Origin: a virus
Taxonomy: Duplodnaviria > Heunggongvirae > Uroviricota > Caudoviricetes
Direction: 5' to 3' (one strand)
Virus record (IMG/VR): IMGVR_UViG_2925908680_000005
Span: 1-43,384 of that record
DNA: 43,384 bases
Part shown: in pieces, positions 1-41,843 of the stretch
Layout of the letters: each line of letters starts with the position of its first letter
Position numbering within the stretch: the first letter of the stretch is position 1
Made by a program: the position numbers and the translations under genes
The notes under the pieces: generated by a model
Databases searched by the model: none
The model's input: only the letters and a program-made list of their open reading frames with translations
Told to the model about the DNA's origin: nothing

Positions 1-1866
1 TCACGTAGTACCCAATATAGTCGTACCATCTATGGTTTCGACTCCCGCCGGGGCCAATAATTGCTGTATCCAGCCAATAGCATGCCCTCGCTCAACGCAC
101 TGGGAGAAAAACGCACGCTGCTTTGCTCTGGTAAAGGCAACAAAAAAAGTGTTTAGCTCTTCACCCCGTTGCGGCGTAAGGCTCCACCAAGTCTGATTGT
201 CGAGCCCATAAAATATCATCGTATGGAACTCAAGACCTTTGCTTTTATGGACGGTCATCAGAGCTACCTGGCCAATACCTTCGAACTCATCCAGCGCCTC
301 CGTCCAGCTGCTGCTGTGTTCTGCACACTCTTTCAGGAGAGTGACAAATCCACTCCACACCCTCTCAAAATCTCTTGCACGCTGGTAAGCGGGAAAGGAT
401 TGCCGAAGCCTAGGGGTCCCGACAAATTCAAGAAGCATCTCTGCAATCTCTTCCGCCGAATCCGGACTAGGCTGGCGATGCGCTAGCTCTGTCCTTAATT
501 TACGGACGAATGCTTCAAGCTTAACCAGCAATCGTTCCTGCGTGAGATCGTTATCCGGATCGGCAGCCTCCAAAAACAGATAGTTCTGCTGGGTCTGCTC
601 CCAGTTTTCCGGGCTTCGCTCCGTCGCTCCCAGGCGGAGTAAAGGAACAAATATACCGGTCAGCTCTTCACCAAGCAGATCCTGTATCTGAATTTCACCG
701 ACTGACCGGGCCGCATTTCTGATCCTGAGACCTCGTGCCGCAAAAGAGGGGGCTATTTCACCCTCAACCTGATCTGCCCGCATTCTGATCAGAATCGCTA
801 CATCATGTGGTGCAACACGCTCTGACTGAACCTCACGGCTCACCCATTCAGCCAGATAATTGTTCTCGTCATCTGCGCTCCGGAATTGCCAGATAGCAGA
901 AACCTCACCTTCGATTTCACGGGTCCCTTGTGCCTGCACTTCTTCCACATTATCGTCTATCCGGCGGGCAATCTCGTGCTGAATACGAACCAGATCCACA
1001 TGTGACCGCCAGTTAGAAAGCAGTGTTATGCGTCTGGCAGCAAAGTCGTTTTCAAACTGGTCAAAGGCGTCATTCATGGCTCCCGCCCATCCCATGATAC
1101 GCTGCTTATCATCGCCGACTGCCGTAAAGACAGCATCGCTACCATCGAATGCCGTTAGCAGCATGTCATACTGGGCATAGGTGGTGTCCTGGTATTCATC
1201 AAGAAAGACGATGGGATATGTTGCCTGTAAGGCCCGGCGGATATATGAATTTTCCTGAAGCAGCAGTTTTACAAGCCTGTTTATCATCGGGAAGGACAGG
1301 GATATCTCGTCGCCCCCGAAGAATTGTTCATGCCAGTAATCTGCTAACGCACGATGTACTTCAGATCCATTTGACAAGTCAATTGGCAGGTCTGTCAGAA
1401 GCAGTCTTCTCTCAAGCTGTTGAGCACTCACTCCGTGATAGCCATGTCGCTCAATAAAATCGTCATAATCCCTACGAAACGGATTAACAATCTGATACGT
1501 ACCGGGCGCATTGAACGGCTCAGGTAAAGCCGGACGAAACCGGTCCAGAAGCCCCTTGGTAAAGGCATCAAAAGTCATCGAATCAAAGCGCCGCGCCTGA
1601 TCTCTCGGGCAACGCTTTGCAACCCTTTCGGCGAGGTTTTGGGCGGCATCTTTTTTAAAGCTGATGGCCAGAATACGTTTGGGTGCCGGACAAATACCTG
1701 TCTGCAGAAGATAGGTCGCCTTCTGTGCCAGAAACTCAGTTTTTCCGGCACCGGCACCAGCGGTCACAAGGATGCTGCTATCGGTTTCACGTAAAGCCTC
1801 CCACGCTCTCCCTTCCAGACCACCGACACCCTGAGGTACCCAGTCGTCTCTGCTTACGCGGGTCAT
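1..1866 (-). CDS. UvrD/PcrA-like superfamily-1 DNA helicase (GajB-like partner of an OLD-family nuclease)
   Basis: 621-aa ORF ending at a stop codon at the window edge; helicase motifs visible in translation: AGAGAGKT (Walker A), DEYQDT (motif II), VGDDKQRI, TVHKSKGLEF, VAFTRAK; start overlaps upstream gene stop by 4 nt. Confidence 0.8.
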   Translation of the reverse strand: MTRVSRDDWVPQGVGGLEGRAWEALRETDSSILVTAGAGAGKTEFLAQKATYLLQTGICPAPKRILAISFKKDAAQNLAERVAKRCPRDQARRFDSMTFDAFTKGLLDRFRPALPEPFNAPGTYQIVNPFRRDYDDFIERHGYHGVSAQQLERRLLLTDLPIDLSNGSEVHRALADYWHEQFFGGDEISLSFPMINRLVKLLLQENSYIRRALQATYPIVFLDEYQDTTYAQYDMLLTAFDGSDAVFTAVGDDKQRIMGWAGAMNDAFDQFENDFAARRITLLSNWRSHVDLVRIQHEIARRIDDNVEEVQAQGTREIEGEVSAIWQFRSADDENNYLAEWVSREVQSERVAPHDVAILIRMRADQVEGEIAPSFAARGLRIRNAARSVGEIQIQDLLGEELTGIFVPLLRLGATERSPENWEQTQQNYLFLEAADPDNDLTQERLLVKLEAFVRKLRTELAHRQPSPDSAEEIAEMLLEFVGTPRLRQSFPAYQRARDFERVWSGFVTLLKECAEHSSSWTEALDEFEGIGQVALMTVHKSKGLEFHTMIFYGLDNQTWWSLTPQRGEELNTFFVAFTRAKQRAFFSQCVERGHAIGWIQQLLAPAGVETIDGTTILGTT

Positions 1867-3824
1867 TCATTCTCTCCTGACAGATTAAGCTTATCCGTAA
1901 CGTACTCAATGAGCGCCCTGAGCTCTACAGGAGCGGACGCAGTAACACCGCCGCCCGCGATACGGGAAAAAGCCGCAAGGTGAGTTTCGGGCTTACTGCG
2001 GCTCAGGAACAGATACGGATACCATTTGAAAGCGTCATCATAATGCGCGGTATACAAGGCAGGATTACCACCTGTTTTCAGCGTACTGACCTTTTTGGCT
2101 TGAATAGCAGCAGCACTACTCTGGGGTCCATTGCCACCTGGATTGGCAACCTGATAAGCGGTTGGAAAGGCGAGCAACATGGCAAAATCGAGATCAATGG
2201 GATAGGAAAAGAAAACTCCTTCCCTCCTGAATGCTTGAAGCCATTGACCTTGCAGGCCTTCATTATAAAGCTGTTGGTCGGTAAGCTGAGCAGCATTAGC
2301 ACCATTGGTGCTCCCCAAATTACTCCCGATAGCGGCCAAATTCTGAAGGCAGCTTCTCATGGCATTCGCCCCACCATGTCGGCGCCCCAGATCAAGATCG
2401 AGCAAAGTGGCATGTGGAATCTCAAGATCATTCAGCAGCCGCCAGAAATGCGCTACGAACCGTCCACCGAGCGGAACGACGGGAACGAATGATGGATCAA
2501 GGGAAACACCCATCTCTTCCGCAATTTTCGGAATAACTACTCGCTCTGAGTCTCCCTCACCCAGGATTACAAATCGCGCAAAATAAAGTTCGGGGTATGC
2601 CTTTACAGCCAGCCTGACATAAACGCTTGCCTCAACATCATCTTCAGGCAGGGTCAGTTCTCGGATCGATGAGCACCGAGCGCTCCGGTCCATACGAAAA
2701 TATCTCACTTCCTCCGGCTCTATCCGGCTCAGGATAGATGGGGAATGGCTAGATAGCAGAACCTGCGCGGAAGGCAGTGCGCCAATCTCTCTCGCCTGCT
2801 TGATGATGCGAGATAAAAAGAACGGTGACAGGCTGTTTTCTGGTTCTTCGATGGCAAGAATCGTCAGGTGAATACGGCGTAACTTATCCTGTTCAAATGA
2901 GCTGTCATCAGCAGGCAAAGAAAATGCTTCCCGCTCGGTTTCGAGCGTTGCCGCTGTAAGAGCGATATGGAACAGAGAGCGCTGACCGTCACTCAGCTCG
3001 GACAAACGACGCTCCTGACCTTCTTCATCAGGCGTAAAAGTAAATTCGGCTTTACGAACAAGCTCCTCAAAACGGTTCTCGATGAGCCTTAAACGCGGTT
3101 TACTGTCTGTATCGGCCTCATGGACCTGTTGCCAACGCTTCGAAAGACGCTCCAGCAGAAACTTCGACGGCTCCTCTTCCTCGAAACTGCTCTGGATCTG
3201 ACCGGCATTAACATAGCTTGCATCCCTAAATGCCGTCGACCATTTGGCAGCCTGCCATAACCGCCCTTTTAGAAGGGCGGTCACTTGAGTCGTCGCATCA
3301 CGATTTGCCGGTAAGTAAATAAACTGGATTGAAGAGCGCTCTACAGCCTGAACCCTGGAACAGTCATCCCATTCAAAATTATCATCCAGGGCTCTTATCC
3401 AGCGTATATCCTCCTCAATTGCTCCCTCCGGCGTACCGTCATCCGTCCATGTTGCTTGTAGTCGTATCCGGGCCTTAAGGGGCTCTCCCTCACCGGAAGC
3501 CGCCATCTGATTAAAGAACTCCGGAACGGCATCAAGAGGAGAAGCGTCTTGCTCTTCCAGTTCAGGGAAGGCAAGTACCGCTTCGACAAACAGACTGTCG
3601 CCAGACTGCAGCTCCTGCCGGTCAATAGGTATGTGAAAATCTCGACGCTGTACCGATCGCTGCGCTGATGTTGTACCAAACAACCTGGACACAGCTTGCA
3701 GCACTGCCGTCTTTCCGGAGCCGTTTCCGCCGACAAGTATTGTCAGTTCTTCCTCAAAATTTAGCTCGACCACCTCATGCCCGAAACAACGAAAATTCTG
3801 TAGCTTTATCTTCTCTATTTTCAT
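1863..3824 (-). CDS. OLD-family ABC ATPase with C-terminal TOPRIM nuclease domain (GajA-like / class 2 OLD)
   Basis: 653-aa ORF; N-terminus MKIEKIKLQNFRCF with Walker A GGNGSGKT; C-terminal TOPRIM-like glutamate (ILGEGDSE) and DxD (LLDLDLG); translationally coupled to the downstream helicase. Confidence 0.8.
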   Translation of the reverse strand: MKIEKIKLQNFRCFGHEVVELNFEEELTILVGGNGSGKTAVLQAVSRLFGTTSAQRSVQRRDFHIPIDRQELQSGDSLFVEAVLAFPELEEQDASPLDAVPEFFNQMAASGEGEPLKARIRLQATWTDDGTPEGAIEEDIRWIRALDDNFEWDDCSRVQAVERSSIQFIYLPANRDATTQVTALLKGRLWQAAKWSTAFRDASYVNAGQIQSSFEEEEPSKFLLERLSKRWQQVHEADTDSKPRLRLIENRFEELVRKAEFTFTPDEEGQERRLSELSDGQRSLFHIALTAATLETEREAFSLPADDSSFEQDKLRRIHLTILAIEEPENSLSPFFLSRIIKQAREIGALPSAQVLLSSHSPSILSRIEPEEVRYFRMDRSARCSSIRELTLPEDDVEASVYVRLAVKAYPELYFARFVILGEGDSERVVIPKIAEEMGVSLDPSFVPVVPLGGRFVAHFWRLLNDLEIPHATLLDLDLGRRHGGANAMRSCLQNLAAIGSNLGSTNGANAAQLTDQQLYNEGLQGQWLQAFRREGVFFSYPIDLDFAMLLAFPTAYQVANPGGNGPQSSAAAIQAKKVSTLKTGGNPALYTAHYDDAFKWYPYLFLSRSKPETHLAAFSRIAGGGVTASAPVELRALIEYVTDKLNLSGENE

Positions 3825-3872
3825 TCCTGATTACCTTTTTGTAAGAGATGCCTTTAAAAGTTAGCGAGCCCC

Positions 3873-5108
3873 CTAAATAACCCACTCATCAATCATATCA
3901 GCCCAGTCCTGCAACATAGATGTACGCTGATCACGATACTCGGCTTTGTTATATATCGCCCTCACACCTTTTTGCTCATGTGCCAGGCATTTCTCTATCC
4001 AATCGGTGTTGTAACCGGCTTCATGGAGTAAGGTACTTGCTGTACGCCTCAGATCGTGGGGTCCAAACTTGGCAAGGGACTGCCCTTCTTTCTGAGCCAG
4101 CTTGTAAGTCATCGTCATCACCCGGTTTAGCGTGGCACTGCTCATGGGCACGTCAGAATCGTAACGCGACGGCAGAACATAATCCGATCCACCGGAGAAC
4201 GTCTTCAAAGCGATGAGAATGTCCATGGCCTGCCTGGATAGAAACACCAGGTGAGGATTTCGCCGCTTCATCCTTTCTTTAGGGATCGTCCAGAGCGCTT
4301 CGCTGAAGTTGATCTCACTCCAGGTAGCATTCGTCAGCTCGCTTTTTCGCACCATCGTCAACAACAACAGTTTTACCGCTGCGCGGATCGATGGTGATGT
4401 ACCAATACGCCCCATGTACTGATACATGATCCTAATTTCTTCGGGCGTCAGGGTTCGATCTCTCGGCTCAAACCTGGCAATGCTTGCTGGCCGCACCAGG
4501 TCTGCTGGGTTCTCAACCTTCTGGCCTCGCTCAGTGGCCCAGCGGTATACCTGGAGTACAATCTCACGCGCATGAACCGCCGTAGCAGGCGCACCGCGCT
4601 CTACGATGGCGTCGGTAAGTGCTCGCAAGTCCTCGTGGGTGATTTCGGTCAGCTTCTGATTGCCGAATTTCGTTTCCAGCTCTCTCGTATAAACCGAGCG
4701 GCGCATATCACGGGTAGAGTCGGCCATCTGGTAGCCACGTAGCCACTTTTCCGCCCAGGCACCAAAGGTTTCAGCCCCTTTTACACGCGCCTTGTCCCGT
4801 GCCTTCTCCTTCGCTGGCGACTTTCCATCAGCGACCATCCGCTTGGCTTCACTAAGTCGCTCACGGGCTTCTGCCAGAGTGATACCCCCAACGCCATAGC
4901 GGCCAAAGGTGATTGTCTCTTGCCTGCCATTGATCGAGTAGTTGTAACGGAATGAGATAGAGCCGGCAGGAGTGACAGCCACATAGAGGCCATCCCGGTC
5001 ATTCACCTTGTAGAGTTTATCCCTCGGCTTGAGGTTGCGCAGCTTGGTATCGGTCAGCAAGAGTCTTATCCTTCTTCGATTCCAATACCATGCTGGAAGA
5101 TTACCCAA
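3873..5108 (-). CDS. int: tyrosine site-specific integrase (P4/CP4-57-like, DUF4102-type N-terminus)
   Basis: 411-aa ORF; N-terminal LTDTKLRNLKP...GLYVAV arm-binding-type domain; C-terminal catalytic region HDLRRTAST...AHE...Y typical of tyrosine recombinases. Confidence 0.9.
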   Translation of the reverse strand: MGNLPAWYWNRRRIRLLLTDTKLRNLKPRDKLYKVNDRDGLYVAVTPAGSISFRYNYSINGRQETITFGRYGVGGITLAEARERLSEAKRMVADGKSPAKEKARDKARVKGAETFGAWAEKWLRGYQMADSTRDMRRSVYTRELETKFGNQKLTEITHEDLRALTDAIVERGAPATAVHAREIVLQVYRWATERGQKVENPADLVRPASIARFEPRDRTLTPEEIRIMYQYMGRIGTSPSIRAAVKLLLLTMVRKSELTNATWSEINFSEALWTIPKERMKRRNPHLVFLSRQAMDILIALKTFSGGSDYVLPSRYDSDVPMSSATLNRVMTMTYKLAQKEGQSLAKFGPHDLRRTASTLLHEAGYNTDWIEKCLAHEQKGVRAIYNKAEYRDQRTSMLQDWADMIDEWVI

Positions 5109-5153
5109 AAATCGAGCAATAAAACCAATAAAAACAGATAGTTAAATAATTTC

Positions 5154-5242
5154 GATACCATGAACACACAGGATCAAGCAGCATGGTATCGGCTATCACT
5201 CATGGCATCATGTCTCGATAATACCACCTTGGATACCATGCT
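5154..5242. repeat. three copies of GATACCATG (two direct at 5154-5162 and 5234-5242, one inverted at 5182-5190) upstream of int; candidate integrase or regulatory binding sites
   Basis: read directly in the int upstream intergenic region. Confidence 0.4.
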
Positions 5243-5290
5243 CAAGCGGTGCTTCCCGCTGCCATCAGTTGCCAAATAATGCCAGACATA

Positions 5291-5320
5291 AAAACAAAAA
5301 AGCCCATCAAAACATGGGCT
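5291..5320 (-). terminator. intrinsic terminator ending the late (lysis) operon before int
   Basis: stem AGCCCAT/ATGGGCT with 6-nt loop, followed on the minus strand by a U-run (plus-strand AAAACAAAAA). Confidence 0.6.
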
Positions 5321-5492
5321 TGAGTGTAATTTAATGCCAGTTTGTACCAGCTAATGCCTAACGTGTGATCATTCCACTCAATTATTTACGACAACCATAA
5401 CCAATTGAGTGATAACATTTTTCCAAAACTTCATCTTTCTCATACCGTTTTATATACCGTCACCGGAAATCAGTACCATGAAAAATGCCATG

Positions 5493-6884: not shown

Positions 6885-7284
6885 CGTCTTTTCTCCCCGG
6901 GATCAGGTCACGCGGATTTTCAGAACGGTGATACAGCCAGATGCCAATGCGGACAGCGACGATAGCCGACACGAACGCCCCGGCAGAAAACACAATCCCC
7001 TTTTCAAATGAGTCCTGCGTAATCGTAGGGATCATGCTGGCAATACCGATAAGAATGGATGCTGTCGCCTTATAAAAGAGAAGGCCGCAGAAGAAGCTGA
7101 GAAACGCCAGAAGTAACCGCCTCTTTATGGGATACTCCACCGCCGAGGTAACAAAAATTACCGCACCAGCAAGCGCCCCTAAAGCCACCTCCGGCGGCAC
7201 ACCCGCGACCACAGACATTAGCGCGCTCAGGCTAAGCCCCTGATTCAGCGATTCCGTGGTTAACGAGTGCGACATAGTGACCAC
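6871..7284 (-). CDS. holin-like membrane protein
   Basis: 137 aa with several hydrophobic helices; first gene of lysis cassette. Confidence 0.45.
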   Translation of the reverse strand: MVTMSHSLTTESLNQGLSLSALMSVVAGVPPEVALGALAGAVIFVTSAVEYPIKRRLLLAFLSFFCGLLFYKATASILIGIASMIPTITQDSFEKGIVFSAGAFVSAIVAVRIGIWLYHRSENPRDLIPGRKDDDQS

Positions 7285-7380
7285 CGTTTAATGTGCATAA
7301 AGAACCCCCTTAGTTGATGAGCTCATCATACACAATAAACCATATGTGGATTGACTTTGATCGGATAACCATTAACGAAA

Positions 7381-7395
7381 TTACCTTTTGGGTGA
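7381..7395. promoter_or_regulatory. imperfect copy of the TTACC-N5-GGTAA palindrome (TTACC TTTTG GGTGA) about 30 bp upstream of the acyltransferase start
   Basis: read directly. Confidence 0.35.
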
Positions 7396-7424
7396 TATAC
7401 TAATGGCAAATCAATGAGTAATAT

Positions 7425-8540
7425 ATGGACATCCTTTCAATGATAAAGAATGAATTAAAATCAATCCAAATTCTTAGAGGTTTGGCGGCACTTATGGTCG
7501 TTCTATACCACTTTAGGACCGTTCTTAATTATGATAATGTCAGGATGGGTGATTATCTTTTTGGTAAGGGGTTTATTGGTGTTGATTTATTTTTCGTAAT
7601 TAGTGGATTCATAATGGCTTACACGACCAACTTGACTCATGACGCTATTGCCGATGTAAAATCATTTGCAATTAAAAGGGTTAGTAGAATATATCCTGTT
7701 CTTTTTACTTCATTTATTATTGCGTCTTTATCATTCATGAATTTTGAAAGGGTATTATCACAGTCTTTTTTTGAAACACTAAGCAGCCTTGCCTTGATTC
7801 CTACAACAAGTTCTTTGCCGCCATTTTTTATAGATACACATTCAATACTTGGTGTTAGGTGGACTTTAAATTATGAGGTATATTTCTATTCTATTTTTGC
7901 GATATCTTTATTTTTTGGAAAGAGAAGGTATTATGTTCTACTGGCATGGATTATTATGACAGTATTTTTTACTCAAATACTAATTAATGGATCATTCAGT
8001 GCCAAGGCTGTAAGCCCTAGATTTGAAAGTCCATGGTTGTCAATGATTACAAACTCTATCGTTCTTGATTTTGCAATTGGCGTTATTGTAGCAATGGCAA
8101 TTGAGGCGGGAATAATAATAAATAGAAGATTATCAATTGCCTCTTTGGTTTTTGTTGCTTATGTTTCAATGAACCAGATAGCTGTAGTAAAGGGTCACGG
8201 ACTCTCAGAGTTTGGAATGTACGCAGCAATAATTGTTTATTTATGTGTTTGCCTTGAAAAAAATGGATTTAGTTTTAATTCGCCAGCGCTAGAGCATTTG
8301 GGTAATATTTCTTATTCTTTATACCTATTGCATCTGTCGGTAAGTACATTCATCGGAATAATAGTTACAAATCTCGGAGTTAGGGAATACTTTTCAAATG
8401 GCATTTATATGGTAACACTTGTAGCCATTAGTATAATGTCAGCACACATCTCGTATAAGTATATTGAGTTATCGCTATCGAGGAGGGTAAGAGGATGGAT
8501 GATGATAAAATCTGGCATCCTTGCCAAAAATAAAAATTAA
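7425..8540 (+). CDS. acyltransferase family 3 membrane protein (O-antigen acetyltransferase-like; likely lysogenic conversion gene)
   Basis: 371 aa, multi-pass membrane protein with family-3 N-terminus (RGLAALMVVLYHF...GVDLFFVISGF); strongly AT-rich relative to flanks; opposite strand to surrounding late genes. Confidence 0.8.
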   Translation: MDILSMIKNELKSIQILRGLAALMVVLYHFRTVLNYDNVRMGDYLFGKGFIGVDLFFVISGFIMAYTTNLTHDAIADVKSFAIKRVSRIYPVLFTSFIIASLSFMNFERVLSQSFFETLSSLALIPTTSSLPPFFIDTHSILGVRWTLNYEVYFYSIFAISLFFGKRRYYVLLAWIIMTVFFTQILINGSFSAKAVSPRFESPWLSMITNSIVLDFAIGVIVAMAIEAGIIINRRLSIASLVFVAYVSMNQIAVVKGHGLSEFGMYAAIIVYLCVCLEKNGFSFNSPALEHLGNISYSLYLLHLSVSTFIGIIVTNLGVREYFSNGIYMVTLVAISIMSAHISYKYIELSLSRRVRGWMMIKSGILAKNKN

Positions 8541-8541
8541 T

Positions 8542-30543: not shown

Positions 30544-30620
30544 GTGGCATTAGCTCAGTTGGACAGAGCAACCGCCTTCTAAGCGGTTGGTCGCAGGTTC
30601 GAATCCTGCATGCCACGCCA
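30544..30620 (+). tRNA. tRNA-Arg (anticodon UCU), phage-encoded
   Basis: cloverleaf folded by hand: 7-bp acceptor GTGGCAT/ATGCCAC, D-arm GCTC-AGTTGGACA-GAGC, anticodon stem ACCGC/GCGGT with loop CTTCTAA, T-arm GCAGG-TTCGAAT-CCTGC, discriminator G, encoded CCA. Confidence 0.85.
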
Positions 30621-35397: not shown

Positions 35398-36006
35398 TCA
35401 TGCCGATCTATTTTTCATCAGTGATTCATAAAACTTTTGCCACTTATGCCGACCGAAATTAGCCTTCGAGTTACAGCTAGAACAAAGGCAAATAAGGTTC
35501 TCCTGACGACAGTCTTGCTTGTCGTAATTGATGTGATGAGTTGTTAGCCTTTTGTCTGTTCCATCACAACCTGGGTTCTGACAAGTAAAACCATCTCGCT
35601 CAATAACCCTCTTGCTCGTTTCTCGGAAATCCCACGGATACGGCAATCTCGATAATCCACCAGACCAGTTTGGATTTCCTTCCCCCTTCATCAGAGAAGA
35701 ACGCATTATGTTGGAACACTGTTTCGAGCAGCATTTATGACGCTTCTCATGACTCAAGAAAACGGAGAACGAAGATCCGCATACGCAGCATATTTTTAAT
35801 ACTCGCTTTAGTTCCCGATTTACCGTCTTGCCTCGCTGTGAAATTCCTACACACTGAAGTGAGCAGAACCTTGAAGATGAGTTGGCTCGCTTAACCTGAT
35901 ATTGCCTGCCACATACGGAGCAAACCTTTTCGATTTTCCCACCCTTCCAATTCGGGTTTTTATCACCGGATACAATCAATCCCGCAGCATTGGGCTTCTC
36001 GCTCAT
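35398..36006 (-). CDS. HNH endonuclease
   Basis: 202 aa, Cys-rich with HNH-like signature (HHINYDK...N...CxxCN); AT-rich codon usage. Confidence 0.65.
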   Translation of the reverse strand: MSEKPNAAGLIVSGDKNPNWKGGKIEKVCSVCGRQYQVKRANSSSRFCSLQCVGISQRGKTVNRELKRVLKICCVCGSSFSVFLSHEKRHKCCSKQCSNIMRSSLMKGEGNPNWSGGLSRLPYPWDFRETSKRVIERDGFTCQNPGCDGTDKRLTTHHINYDKQDCRQENLICLCSSCNSKANFGRHKWQKFYESLMKNRSA

Positions 36007-36473: not shown

Positions 36474-37274
36474 TTACTTGATAAATCCTGCCGCCTTTCC
36501 TCGCCTGTATTCCTCCATCAGCCACTGCGCCGGTGTTATTCCCCCCAAGGTGGCGGCGTTAGGCATACACCCGAAACTTCGCCCTGGTGGATGGTAAACG
36601 TCTCTCCCTGTGTCCGGAGGCGTACTCATGGGCTCTGGCTTTGCCTGTATGCTGATCACCGGATCGGGTATCTGCTGTCCGGAAGCCACCTTTTTCGCCC
36701 AATCATCGAGCAGCCTGCGCGCGTGTTTCTCAACCTCAATCTCGCTAAGCTGGCGCTGATACATTGCACGGCGGGTATCACATACGACCCAGTACATAAC
36801 CGGATGTCGCCACGGGAATCTTTCGGGACCACCAGGATATAAACTTTTTTCCTTGCTGTACCGGTGAAACTCCGCCATCACATCGTCAATGGTAACGCCA
36901 AGAACCATCTTGCTGTCTTTACACCACTTGATAAATTGCCCTGGCGACGGCCAGAACGGAGATTCACTGGCGCGGGCGTGGCGCATACCAGCAGAAACCT
37001 GTTCACGGGTTCGGATCCCCCCTTCGGCAAACGCAGCAATCCACTGCTGTTTTGCAGCAACTTCCTGCTCTGGCGTCTTCAGGTTGGTTACCACTGCCGC
37101 CGGAAACAGTTGTTTCAGCTGTTTGAAAAGGGCATCAACAAGCCTCTCTGCTGACATGTTCACCACATTGTCATTGTTGACGTATTGATGCTCATAACCT
37201 GACATGCGAGAAAGGGCTTCTCCGTCACGGTTTTGTATCGCGGTAAAAACGTTGTTCACAAGAAATCCTCCCAC
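36474..37274 (-). CDS. replication protein P-like (helicase loader)
   Basis: 266 aa; central region (FPAAVVTNL...QWIAAFAEGGIRTREQVSAGMRHARASESPFWPSPGQFIKWC) resembles lambda P as recalled from memory. Confidence 0.7.
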   Translation of the reverse strand: MGGFLVNNVFTAIQNRDGEALSRMSGYEHQYVNNDNVVNMSAERLVDALFKQLKQLFPAAVVTNLKTPEQEVAAKQQWIAAFAEGGIRTREQVSAGMRHARASESPFWPSPGQFIKWCKDSKMVLGVTIDDVMAEFHRYSKEKSLYPGGPERFPWRHPVMYWVVCDTRRAMYQRQLSEIEVEKHARRLLDDWAKKVASGQQIPDPVISIQAKPEPMSTPPDTGRDVYHPPGRSFGCMPNAATLGGITPAQWLMEEYRRGKAAGFIK

Positions 37275-38143
37275 GCTTCAGGGCTGTTCCAGTGCGGAAC
37301 GTTGTTATCAGGTAATGTTGATTGCTTCTGTCTGCTAATCTGCAGCCGCCTTGCCAGCTTCTGCTCCCACTGTGCCTGATGGTATGCCTTACCCTCAGCC
37401 ATCCAGTAAATTCTGAACTCTGCAAGTTCCTGTGCCGTTGGCAGACTGTCCAGGTAGATCCCCTGCAATGAGCTTTTCCGAAGAAAGTCATCTGATGGCT
37501 GCCATTGTTCATGCATGACAAATTTTCCTAATTGCCCTGGCCCACCAGGAGGAACAAAGTTATTCATCACGGCGTTGTTTGCGCCGGGGTCATGAGGCAC
37601 AGAATCCCCGGTTTTTGTCCTGCTCTCCCTCTCTTGGTTAAATGACTGGTTATATGACTGGTTCTGGATCCCGTTTTTGGGATCATTCAACATCCCGTTT
37701 TTGGGATCATTCAACATCCCGTTTTTGGGATCATTCAACATCCCGTTTTTGGGATCATTCAACATCCCGTTTTTGGGATCATTCAACATCCCGTTTTTGG
37801 GTATATTCCCGTTTTCGGTAACATTACCGTTTTCGGGTTCATTACCCCCTTCCCGGTTGCCTTTAATGTTCCCGTTTTTGGTTATATTAAGAGAGAAAAC
37901 CCGCACTCTTTTCGTCGCTCCCTTTCTCTCTCCGGTATCTGAAATAAGCCCCATTTTCATGAGCGATATAAGCCCGGCCTGCACGGTTTTTTTATTCAAG
38001 CAAGTGTCTTTAACGAGGCGTTCTATGCTGGGGTAGCAGAGGTTATATTCATCGGCTCTGTCAGCCATCGAGAGCAGTATGAGCTTTAATGATGAGCTGC
38101 CTGGATCTGTCTCCCAGGCCCAATCTGTTGCATGTCTGCTCAT
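37256..38143 (-). CDS. replication initiator O-like protein with in-gene iterons
   Basis: 295 aa; N-terminal winged-HTH-like domain; central GMLNDPKN x5 peptide repeat encoded by tandem 24-bp DNA repeats. Confidence 0.7.
   Translation of the reverse strand: MSRHATDWAWETDPGSSSLKLILLSMADRADEYNLCYPSIERLVKDTCLNKKTVQAGLISLMKMGLISDTGERKGATKRVRVFSLNITKNGNIKGNREGGNEPENGNVTENGNIPKNGMLNDPKNGMLNDPKNGMLNDPKNGMLNDPKNGMLNDPKNGIQNQSYNQSFNQERESRTKTGDSVPHDPGANNAVMNNFVPPGGPGQLGKFVMHEQWQPSDDFLRKSSLQGIYLDSLPTAQELAEFRIYWMAEGKAYHQAQWEQKLARRLQISRQKQSTLPDNNVPHWNSPEAWEDFL
37666..37881. repeat. iteron array (candidate origin of replication): five perfect tandem 24-bp repeats (37681-37800) flanked by degenerate 14-25-bp copies
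   Basis: unit GATCATTCAACATCCCGTTTTTGG repeated head-to-tail five times; degenerate CCGTTTT(C/T)GG-containing copies on both sides. Confidence 0.7.
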
Positions 38144-40905: not shown

Positions 40906-41843
40906 GCAACGACATCGCAAACATCAACGCACCAGTAGACACAGCAATCGCTGGAACTGCTGCAACTATTTTCAGCCCAGACGGCTTGAACCAACTGATG
41001 AAATTCGCCGAGGTAATGGCGCAAAGCCGCGTAACGGTACCGGCGCACCTCGCTGGGAAACCAGCTGATTGCATGGCCGTGGCAATGCAGGCTGCGCAGT
41101 GGGGAATGAACCCGTTTGCCGTGGCTCAGAAAACCCATGTTGTGAACGGCACGCTAGGTTATGAAGCCCAATTAGTAAACGCAGTTATCTCAACAATGTC
41201 GCCAACAAAAGATCGCATCAACTACGAGTGGTTCGGGCCGTGGGAACGCGTGATCGGTAAGTTTGTTGAGAAAACATCCAAAAACGGCAATCCGTATATC
41301 GCACCAGGCTGGACTCTAAAAGACGAAGAAGGTTGCGGTGTTCGCGTATGGGCAACCATGAAGGGCGAGGATCAACCTCGAGTGCTTGAGTTAATGCTGT
41401 CTCAAGCACAGGTAAGAAACTCCACACTTTGGGCCAGTGATCCGAAACAACAACTCGCATACCTTGCAACAAAACGCTGGTCTCGCTTGCACTGTCCTGA
41501 CGTAATCATGGGCGTCTACACACCAGACGAATTACAGGAAACGGCACCGCGCGTTGAGCGAGACATTACTCCGCAAACGACCACTGCTGCGGGAATGAAC
41601 AGTCTGATTAACGCTAAACAAGTGAAAAATCCTGATGAGCAAACGCGTAAAGCGGATAGCCGTGATCCAGAAGAAATGCTAATGGCCTTTACCAGCGCAG
41701 CGATGAATTACAGCACTGTCTCCGAACTGGATAAAGCTTACAAATACATTGCACAAAAACTTTCAGATGATGACGAACTGCTGGCAAAAGCCACCGACGT
41801 TTACAGCGTTCGTCGGGAAGAATTAAACGAAACATCTATGTAA
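40902..41843 (+). CDS. RecT/Red-beta family single-strand annealing protein
   Basis: about 313 aa from the MSNDIANIN methionine; C-terminal region (WASDPKQQLAYLATKRW...ERDITPQ) resembles lambda Bet as recalled from memory. Confidence 0.6.
   Translation: MSNDIANINAPVDTAIAGTAATIFSPDGLNQLMKFAEVMAQSRVTVPAHLAGKPADCMAVAMQAAQWGMNPFAVAQKTHVVNGTLGYEAQLVNAVISTMSPTKDRINYEWFGPWERVIGKFVEKTSKNGNPYIAPGWTLKDEEGCGVRVWATMKGEDQPRVLELMLSQAQVRNSTLWASDPKQQLAYLATKRWSRLHCPDVIMGVYTPDELQETAPRVERDITPQTTTAAGMNSLINAKQVKNPDEQTRKADSRDPEEMLMAFTSAAMNYSTVSELDKAYKYIAQKLSDDDELLAKATDVYSVRREELNETSM

Follow-up and report, generated by a model that had tools for sequence, protein, structure and literature searches.

We analysed a stretch of viral DNA of 43,384 nucleotides (IMG/VR virus record IMGVR_UViG_2925908680_000005; the whole stretch is hereafter called the window), which is a phiV10-like (Uetakevirus) E. 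coli prophage. Our subject is an array of short repeats inside its replication initiator gene, which a first-pass annotation had taken for an origin-like iteron array parallel to that of phage lambda. As a correction to that annotation, the repeat-bearing gene lies on the minus strand. The features of the locus are as follows:

37256-38143, minus strand: replication initiator gene of 295 amino acids (aa), with an N-terminal winged helix, a repeat-encoded linker and a DnaT-like C-terminal domain (open reading frame (ORF) and Pfam).
37880-38143, minus strand: region coding for the N-terminal winged-helix DNA-binding domain (aa 1-88), the presumed reader of the iterons (AlphaFold2).
37872-37882, minus strand: outermost iteron core, ACCAAAAACGG, encoding ITKNG directly after the wing of the DNA-binding domain (core search).
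37827-37837, minus strand: degenerate iteron core, CCCGAAAACGG, encoding EPENG (core search).
37809-37819, minus strand: degenerate iteron core, ACCGAAAACGG, encoding VTENG (core search).
37668-37801, minus strand: perfect tandem block, 5.6 copies of the 24-bp unit GTTGAATGATCCCAAAAACGGGAT as read on the coding strand (Tandem Repeats Finder).
37635-37663, minus strand: 12-mer repeat, 2.4 copies of AACCAGTCATWT directly adjoining the last iteron, which may serve in DNA unwinding or loading (Tandem Repeats Finder).
37605-37634, minus strand: purine-rich tract (AGAGAGGGAGAGCAGGACAAAAACC) with a degenerate half-site, ACAAAAACCGGGGAT, in the position of the A-rich tract of lambda (sequence).
37319-37522, minus strand: region coding for the DnaT-like C-terminal domain (aa 208-275), presumed to dock a partner or bind single-stranded DNA (Pfam and DnaT structures).
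36474-37274, minus strand: helicase-loader gene of the lambda P family (Pfam Phage_lambda_P, E 1.5e-56, 191 bits).

The perfect block is the strongest tandem repeat of the window (period 24, 5.6 copies, 100% matches, score 268 in Tandem Repeats Finder), which bears out the claim of perfect tandem 24-bp repeats within the initiator gene. Every perfect unit contains the dyad ATCCC-AAAAAC-GGGAT and codes for NDPKNGML, and a degenerate stretch with an 18-bp period is found at 37791-37846. Nine in-frame cores of the form CC[A/G]AAAACGG lie at 37671-37882, with coding-orientation spacings of 45, 18 and 18 bp followed by 24 bp five times, and the peptides encoded are, in order, ITKNG, EPENG, VTENG, IPKNG and then (NDPKNGML)x5. 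With at most one mismatch allowed, CCCRAAAACGG has 10 matches in the 43-kb window, nine of them clustered at 37671-37882, against a shuffle expectation of 1.5; none of 100 shuffles reached 10. The degenerate copies are fewer than the five or so first reported, with only three clear (37809-37819, 37827-37837 and 37872-37882) and a fourth candidate at about 37845-37862 without a recognisable core. Rather than flanking the perfect block, they are all found between it and the 5' end of the gene. No unique spacers part the units, which adjoin one another in frame inside an ORF, in agreement with the earlier statement that this is not a CRISPR array. A lone iteron-like site, TCCAAAAACGG, with one mismatch, lies on the plus strand at window positions 41277-41287, among the recombination genes at about 3.4 kb from the array, and is probably a chance match.

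As the annotation had also said, the repeats are in frame and encode a GMLNDPKN-type repeat, here (NDPKNGML)x5, in an inter-domain linker; they occupy aa 86-166, between the two Pfam domains of the protein. The first of these, HTH_36 (PF13730), matches aa 18-67 with 40.7 bits against a cut-off of 25 and was matched in 20 of 20 relatives scanned, and the second, the DnaT DNA-binding domain, matches aa 208-275 with 57.1 bits. AlphaFold2, run with a diverse alignment of 111 sequences, gives a confident winged helix for aa 1-88 (order H-H-H-H-E-E; predicted local distance difference test (pLDDT) 95-98) and a pLDDT below 50 for aa 90-211, and the repeat-encoded segment is therefore predicted to be a disordered linker. 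Foldseek returned only generic winged-helix matches for the N-terminal domain and no close solved relative; the matches include the N-terminal domains of staphylococcal RepA_N initiators (4pql, 4pt7, 5kbj) at weak E values of 0.02-0.07. At the other end of the protein, aa 204-289 match residues 85-170 of E. coli DnaT, and solved DnaT chains are matched with E 8e-21. The similarity does not extend over the full length of DnaT, the N-terminal part being HTH_36. Close homologues carry database names such as 'primosomal protein I', 'DnaT' and 'pyocin large subunit-like', all of which mislead because only the C-terminal 85 residues resemble DnaT. The Pfam scan of the initiator found HTH_36 and DnaT only, with no match to Phage_rep_O (PF04492) or RepA_N (PF06970); lambda O itself scores 123 bits on PF04492. 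The description of the initiator as 'O-like' thus holds for function and architecture and fails for sequence.

The question of whether DNA or peptide is conserved was addressed with 61 diverse loci, taken from bacterial assemblies at one genome per species (Enterobacterales, Vibrio, Pseudoalteromonas, Marinomonas, Acinetobacter and others) and several phages, nearly all of which have an HTH_36 domain followed by similar repeats. Some observations are those expected of a peptide feature only, that is, of a slippage-prone low-complexity linker (NDPKNGML)n selected for its length or for contact with a protein. PxNG-like peptides occur in 83 of 120 diverse relatives, the natural length variants all keep the reading frame, and most cores are in frame 0 (frame counts 47/11/4 for 62 cores in 22 lineages). 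The codons contradict this explanation. With one representative for each of the 22 lineages (N-terminal identity of at most 70%) and motifs picked by peptide only, CCC is the codon of 45 of the 46 motif prolines but of 21 of the 135 prolines in the remainder of the same genes (Fisher 4e-25), and 16 of 17 lineages use no other proline codon in the motif. The motif lysine is always AAA (35/35, against 183/284 elsewhere in the same genes), and AAC for asparagine (29/34 against 75/140) and GGG for glycine (26/46 against 55/218) are likewise preferred. Synonymous sites are otherwise saturated, codon identity being 32% at conserved residues of the N-terminal domain between this gene and distant relatives. 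In the window itself CCC is the rarest proline codon, at 9% in 29 long ORFs, yet it is the only one used in the linker (7 of 7 prolines).

The peptides point in the same direction. Such chemically unlike versions as PKNG, PENG, PKIG, PNFG, PKFG and PIYG are all encoded by DNA that reads CCC, six mostly A/T bases and GGN, so that asparagine, isoleucine, phenylalanine and tyrosine alternate in the core while the A/T-rich dyad is kept, and PVFG (CCCGTTTTTGGG) is encoded by the reverse complement of the core. In many relatives the core CCCAAAAACGG is out of frame and encodes unrelated peptides, for example TQKRD or DPKTE, and one locus (L110) has core sites in all three frames. Spacings of 17, 22, 25 and 26 bp are found beside the mode of 24 bp. 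All 62 cores lie in the linker-coding part of the genes, with none in the remaining 11,187 nt. Because of the codons, the varied peptides, the out-of-frame copies and the location, the conserved object is a dyad-symmetric DNA site and not a peptide, and selection on the repeats acts at the DNA level.

The sites are linked to the N-terminal and not to the C-terminal domain of the initiator. The iteron cassette follows HTH_36 across C-terminal domains that are DnaT-like, Phg_2220_C, of the lambda O type or unrecognised, and Salmonella phage SPN1S, of the same genus as phiV10, combines this DnaT-like C-terminal domain with another N-terminal part and is without such repeats. The N-terminal domain is matched by 567 protein clusters at E<=1e-10. 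In Edwardsiella phage GF-2 (NC_026611, positions 1501-2343), HTH_36 and CCCAAAATTGGG repeats (an array of 2.8 copies of AATGATCCCAAAATTGGGATTTTG) precede a lambda O C-terminal domain with 62% identity to lambda O residues 156-299 (E 2e-67), and a P gene follows. The junction falls just past the position of the iterons and AT-rich tract of lambda, and the cassette replaces the N-terminal half of lambda O together with its iterons. Judged from its sequence, GF-2 is in effect a natural swap of 'DNA-binding domain plus origin' onto the C-terminal half of lambda O. A comparison by eye of recognition-helix residues with the centre of the core gave no clean correlation; GF-2 and the Proteus/Providencia group share the same recognition helix and differ in core centre (AAAATT vs AAAAAC).

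A related initiator was also met on a circular E. coli plasmid of 8,461 bp (NZ_CP148379.1) in which no replicon has been typed. The plasmid encodes a repressor, a cro-like gene, YdaT, an HTH_36/DnaT-like initiator with CCCAAAAACGG at three places and P, and its cargo consists of hokD and genes for an ATP-binding protein and an HNH endonuclease. The whole resembles a natural mini-replicon of the lambda-dv type, unless it is an assembly artefact, and is weak evidence of autonomy because it is a single assembly.

The 12-mer repeat adjoins the array just beyond the coordinates given in the first-pass annotation. Its copies in the window read AACCAGTCATAT/AACCAGTCATTT/AACCA, and in most lineages examined about 2.5 copies of a 12- or 13-bp direct repeat directly follow the last iteron. 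The version in Vibrio and Pseudoalteromonas is AGAACCAGTCATW, with a 13-bp period, a different reading frame and a different peptide (QNQSLEPVIEP, as against QNQSYNQSF in the window), and that in Acinetobacter is GAATCTCCCAWT. In the loci of E. coli, Vibrio and Pseudoalteromonas, the exact 11-mer GAACCAGTCAT was found at that position and nowhere else. In the window the repeat exceeds 200 of 200 shuffles, and the equivalent repeat is significant in most lineages. Its region is also the least stable 30-mer beside the array, with a free energy (dG) of -34.9 against a mean of -40.3 and a standard deviation of 2.7 (about 2 standard deviations). The A+T content is 63% at 37635-37663 and 45% in the next 40 nt, where a repeat family (D3) includes CCGGTTTTTG at 37608-37617. 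The equivalent tract is A-rich in many relatives, at 75-82% A+T in Vibrio and Acinetobacter compared with 45% in the window. From its position, which corresponds to that of the AT-rich region of lambda, the 12-mer region is a candidate unwinding element.

The number of perfect units differs between close relatives, which were surveyed for copy number in IMG/VR (near-identical relatives, the diversity described above coming from the genome scan). There is one perfect unit in the record of Escherichia phage BP9, two in phiV10, EC.W1-9, phiv142-3 and PAS61, and five in the window; in 80 close IMG/VR relatives the unit occurs 1-3 times, with a mode of 2, and the 18-bp units vary too. The gene is carried by 421-424 of 5,426 complete E. 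coli genomes, in which the longest array implies 3 units and the 5-copy allele was not found. In a larger protein collection the allele of 271 aa (2 units) is by far the most frequent, and alleles of 279 aa (3), 287 aa (4) and 311 aa (7 units) are also present, as well as further in-frame duplications. Close relatives overall thus have 1-7 perfect units and from 4 to at least 9 cores, and the five perfect copies of the window are, by these sequence comparisons, one allele of a repeat whose copy number varies in whole units. The repeats are not missing from functional relatives; isolated, propagating phages all keep the array. In the BP9 record (PP488543), a phiV10-type initiator/P module lies at 134437-136228, near the end of a 138-kb Vequintavirus record, and may be a chimeric assembly or prophage contamination.

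The P homologue follows the initiator gene immediately downstream and overlaps its end. The early gene order (repressor, cro-like gene, small ORF, initiator, P, DUF1064) is the same as in phiV10. In the reference record of phiV10, gp43 carries the annotation 'replication initiation protein', and neither an origin nor a repeat is marked.

We consider it probable that the array constitutes the initiator-binding iterons of a lambda-type theta-replication origin of the prophage, located inside the initiator gene. Support for the proposed parallel with lambda, all of it comparative, comes from the codon bias, the out-of-frame cores, the confinement of the cores to the linker-coding part, the linkage to the N-terminal domain, GF-2 and the neighbouring P gene. 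We infer that binding, unwinding and helicase loading might proceed as follows. Transcription of the early leftward operon would supply the initiator, whose N-terminal winged helix would bind the dyad sites (ATCCC-A5C-GGGAT) directly downstream of the part of the gene that codes for this very domain. A multi-protein complex would then form on 4-9 sites, each centred on an A-tract and with a modal spacing of 24 bp, and would distort the DNA so that the adjoining 12-mer repeat and purine-rich tract open. The DnaT-like C-terminal domain and the lambda-P-like protein could then bring in the host DnaB helicase. The repeat-encoded peptide would be a mere flexible linker; because it tolerates changes of length, whole units could be gained or lost by slippage, and the window would hold an expanded 5-copy allele.

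Several points weigh against this interpretation. The tract beside the array has only 45-63% A+T, which is much weaker than the 38-bp AT-rich region of lambda. The N-terminal profile gave a probability of only 10% against lambda O in hhalign, that is, no detectable homology; the alignment covers the helix-turn-helix and the wing just before the iterons and is suggestive, not significant, and the lambda parallel therefore rests on architecture. Relatives in two Acinetobacter groups (L111 and L131), Desulfovibrionaceae and Rhodospirillaceae are without the canonical core, and the codon statistics take lineages as independent though their ancestry is shared. Our literature search, for which much of the older literature is unsearchable, found no description of the core site, of a phiV10-type origin or of HTH_36 iterons. 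The perfect identity of the five copies shows only recent duplication or slippage, not function, and the functional evidence lies in the diverged copies and the distant relatives. It is conceivable that the five copies arose as an artefact in the assembly of a repeat of about 134 bp, against which 3-, 4- and 7-copy alleles exist independently.

Among the other explanations, the one that survives best, though we think it improbable, is that the sites bind the initiator and serve mainly in regulation, through titration, 'handcuffing', autoregulation or interference with related superinfecting phages. Unwinding would then take place at another site, or the origin would comprise no more than the two sites closest to the 12-mer. 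A copy number of 1-7 among near-identical phages and the weak AT-rich element of the window fit this idea. So do precedents from known phages: lambda, with four iterons and an AT-rich tract within O, needs only two iterons together with its AT-rich tract for unwinding, and four of the six iterons in the Stx phages 933W and P27 are bound well (PMC7466680), while ectopic lambda iterons block the replication of phages with lambda-type replication functions (PMC3349717, PMC4488673). The order of iterons, 12/13-mer and A-rich tract is nevertheless kept across hosts, as fits an origin; the GF-2 cassette sits exactly at the place of ori-lambda; and Tandem Repeats Finder found no other repeat cluster in the window able to serve as an origin. 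The regulatory and origin roles are not mutually exclusive.

It is very improbable that the dyads serve some other purpose, as sites for another phage or host protein, as bent DNA, as antisense terminators or as messenger RNA hairpins that affect expression. Five terminator-like hairpins (TGGGATCATTCAACATCCCG then TTTTT) do lie on the plus strand at 37678-37793, one per repeat junction and antisense to the initiator, folding is better for the array than for shuffled sequence on either strand (z -3.6 and -4.3), and the A5 tracts are regularly spaced. The stems, however, are only 5-6 bp long with 3 G-C pairs, an automatic result of adjacent dyads, and both the hairpins and the folding scores are probably by-products of neighbouring dyads. 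Neither the irregular spacing nor the out-of-frame sites of relatives would preserve such hairpins, and the sites co-occur with the DNA-binding domain of the initiator itself in unrelated genomic contexts and hosts. Least probable of all is the peptide-only explanation set out above, against which stand the codons, the out-of-frame cores and the predicted disorder of the linker.

Beyond the role of iterons in a lambda-type origin, we offer tentatively, as a possibility in which we have rather low confidence, a broader reading of the data. The winged helix, the CCC-A/T6-GGG iterons and the 12/13-mer may together form a portable origin-specificity cassette that is common to hundreds of phage initiator families of Gammaproteobacteria and has been joined to one or another exchangeable C-terminal domain. 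If so, the rapid addition and removal of iterons in frame (1-7 units) might be adaptive control, tuning replication or titrating the initiator of competing phages with the same type of replication, and the 12/13-mer might be a previously undescribed unwinding or loading element.

Other observations concern the window as a whole. GC skew was considered as an origin marker and set aside; its sign changes at about 38.5 kb and is uninformative on the origin because this change coincides with the divergent early operons. The left end (about 5.3 kb, positions 1-5367) has no megablast match to phiV10-type phages and may be host flank or a different mosaic module. At 7000-11000 the GC content is low (0.39-0.43 against about 0.51 elsewhere), and phiV10 has its tail fibre and O-antigen acetyltransferase genes at this place, which suggests a horizontally exchanged module for host range or serotype conversion. 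A gene for tRNA-Arg (anticodon TCT) lies on the plus strand at 30544-30620, within the prophage-like region. Downstream of the DUF1064 gene, a cysteine-rich ORF of 202 aa (35398-36006, minus strand) has weak matches to zf-HIT and HNH_3, and phiV10 has other genes at this position (eae-like and ead/Ea22-like).

If the sites act as proposed, the array marks a probable origin for phiV10-type (Uetakevirus) prophages, which are present in about 8% of complete E. coli genomes, and provides a consensus candidate binding site for a large family of phage initiators labelled only 'helix-turn-helix' or 'primosomal protein'. It also suggests a rule for annotation, namely that in-frame PxNG repeats in CCC/AAA codons after an N-terminal HTH_36 domain mark the origin, and adds a conserved 12/13-mer beside the probable origin. 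The gene illustrates clearly how a role at the DNA level can shape a coding sequence. The number of repeats, being variable, could be of use as a typing marker and could influence replication or the interference of related phages with one another.

In-gene origins are already a well-established design, of which the window probably adds another example. The replisome organisers of phages of Gram-positive bacteria (SPP1 G38P with oriL, TP901-1, Tuc2009) bind direct repeats within their own coding sequence, with protein families and site sequences unrelated to those of the window. A closer likeness in layout is found in RepA_N initiators. In pSK41, the N-terminal domain binds four Rep boxes located centrally in rep, and the segment that these encode is a dispensable linker (PMC5703833); RepA_N iterons have been described as semi-palindromes converging on a poly-A tract (PMC7145576). 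Initiators of this type resemble that of the window in having an N-terminal winged helix, an origin-encoded linker and a variable, host-engaging C-terminal domain. They differ in belonging to Gram-positive plasmids with the DnaG primase as partner, whereas the window represents a phage of Gammaproteobacteria with a P-type loader and an initiator without a Pfam RepA_N match. The same account (PMC5703833) describes a chimeric staphylococcal initiator in pPR9, with a pfam13730 N-terminal domain and a replaced origin region on the pSK41 C-terminal domain, and states, citing Perez-Roth 2010, that the pPR9 region replicates autonomously. As in the window, the N-terminal domain of pPR9 is HTH_36 (PF13730), in pPR9 swapped together with the in-gene origin region. 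Host and partner domains differ, and the likeness lies in the domain family.

The Stx-phage origins share with the window a number of iterons that varies between close relatives by duplication of whole units within the initiator gene (PMC7466680). The range of 1-7 perfect units seen here is wider, and the variants are exact tandem copies; the role of extra copies is one that has been tested in the Stx phages. In lambda itself, as in the window, the sites are located where the initiator gene codes for the linker that joins the DNA-binding N-terminal domain to the C-terminal domain, an A-rich or purine-rich tract lies 3' of the sites, and P or a P homologue is the next gene. The sites are dyad-symmetric in both, with ATCCC...AAAAC...GGGA in common and a spacing of about 20-24 bp. 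The annotated lambda iterons (NC_001416) are ATCCCTCAAAACGAGGGA and variants, and the window site ATCCCAAAAACGGGAT has ATCCC, AAAAC and GGGA(T) in common with the lambda iteron and a shorter spacer, giving a dyad of 16 bp (TCCC-N6-GGGA) rather than 18 bp (TCCC-N9-GGGA). Lambda has four 18-bp iterons, in three different frames, and a 38-bp AT-rich region, whereas the nine sites of the window share one frame, some of them as perfect tandem copies, and the 12-mer repeat takes the place of that region, the AT-rich element being much weaker. The window initiator consists of HTH_36 and a DnaT-like C-terminal domain, and lambda O is Phage_rep_O. Because the proteins are not detectably homologous, the likeness to lambda is one of design and not of family membership.

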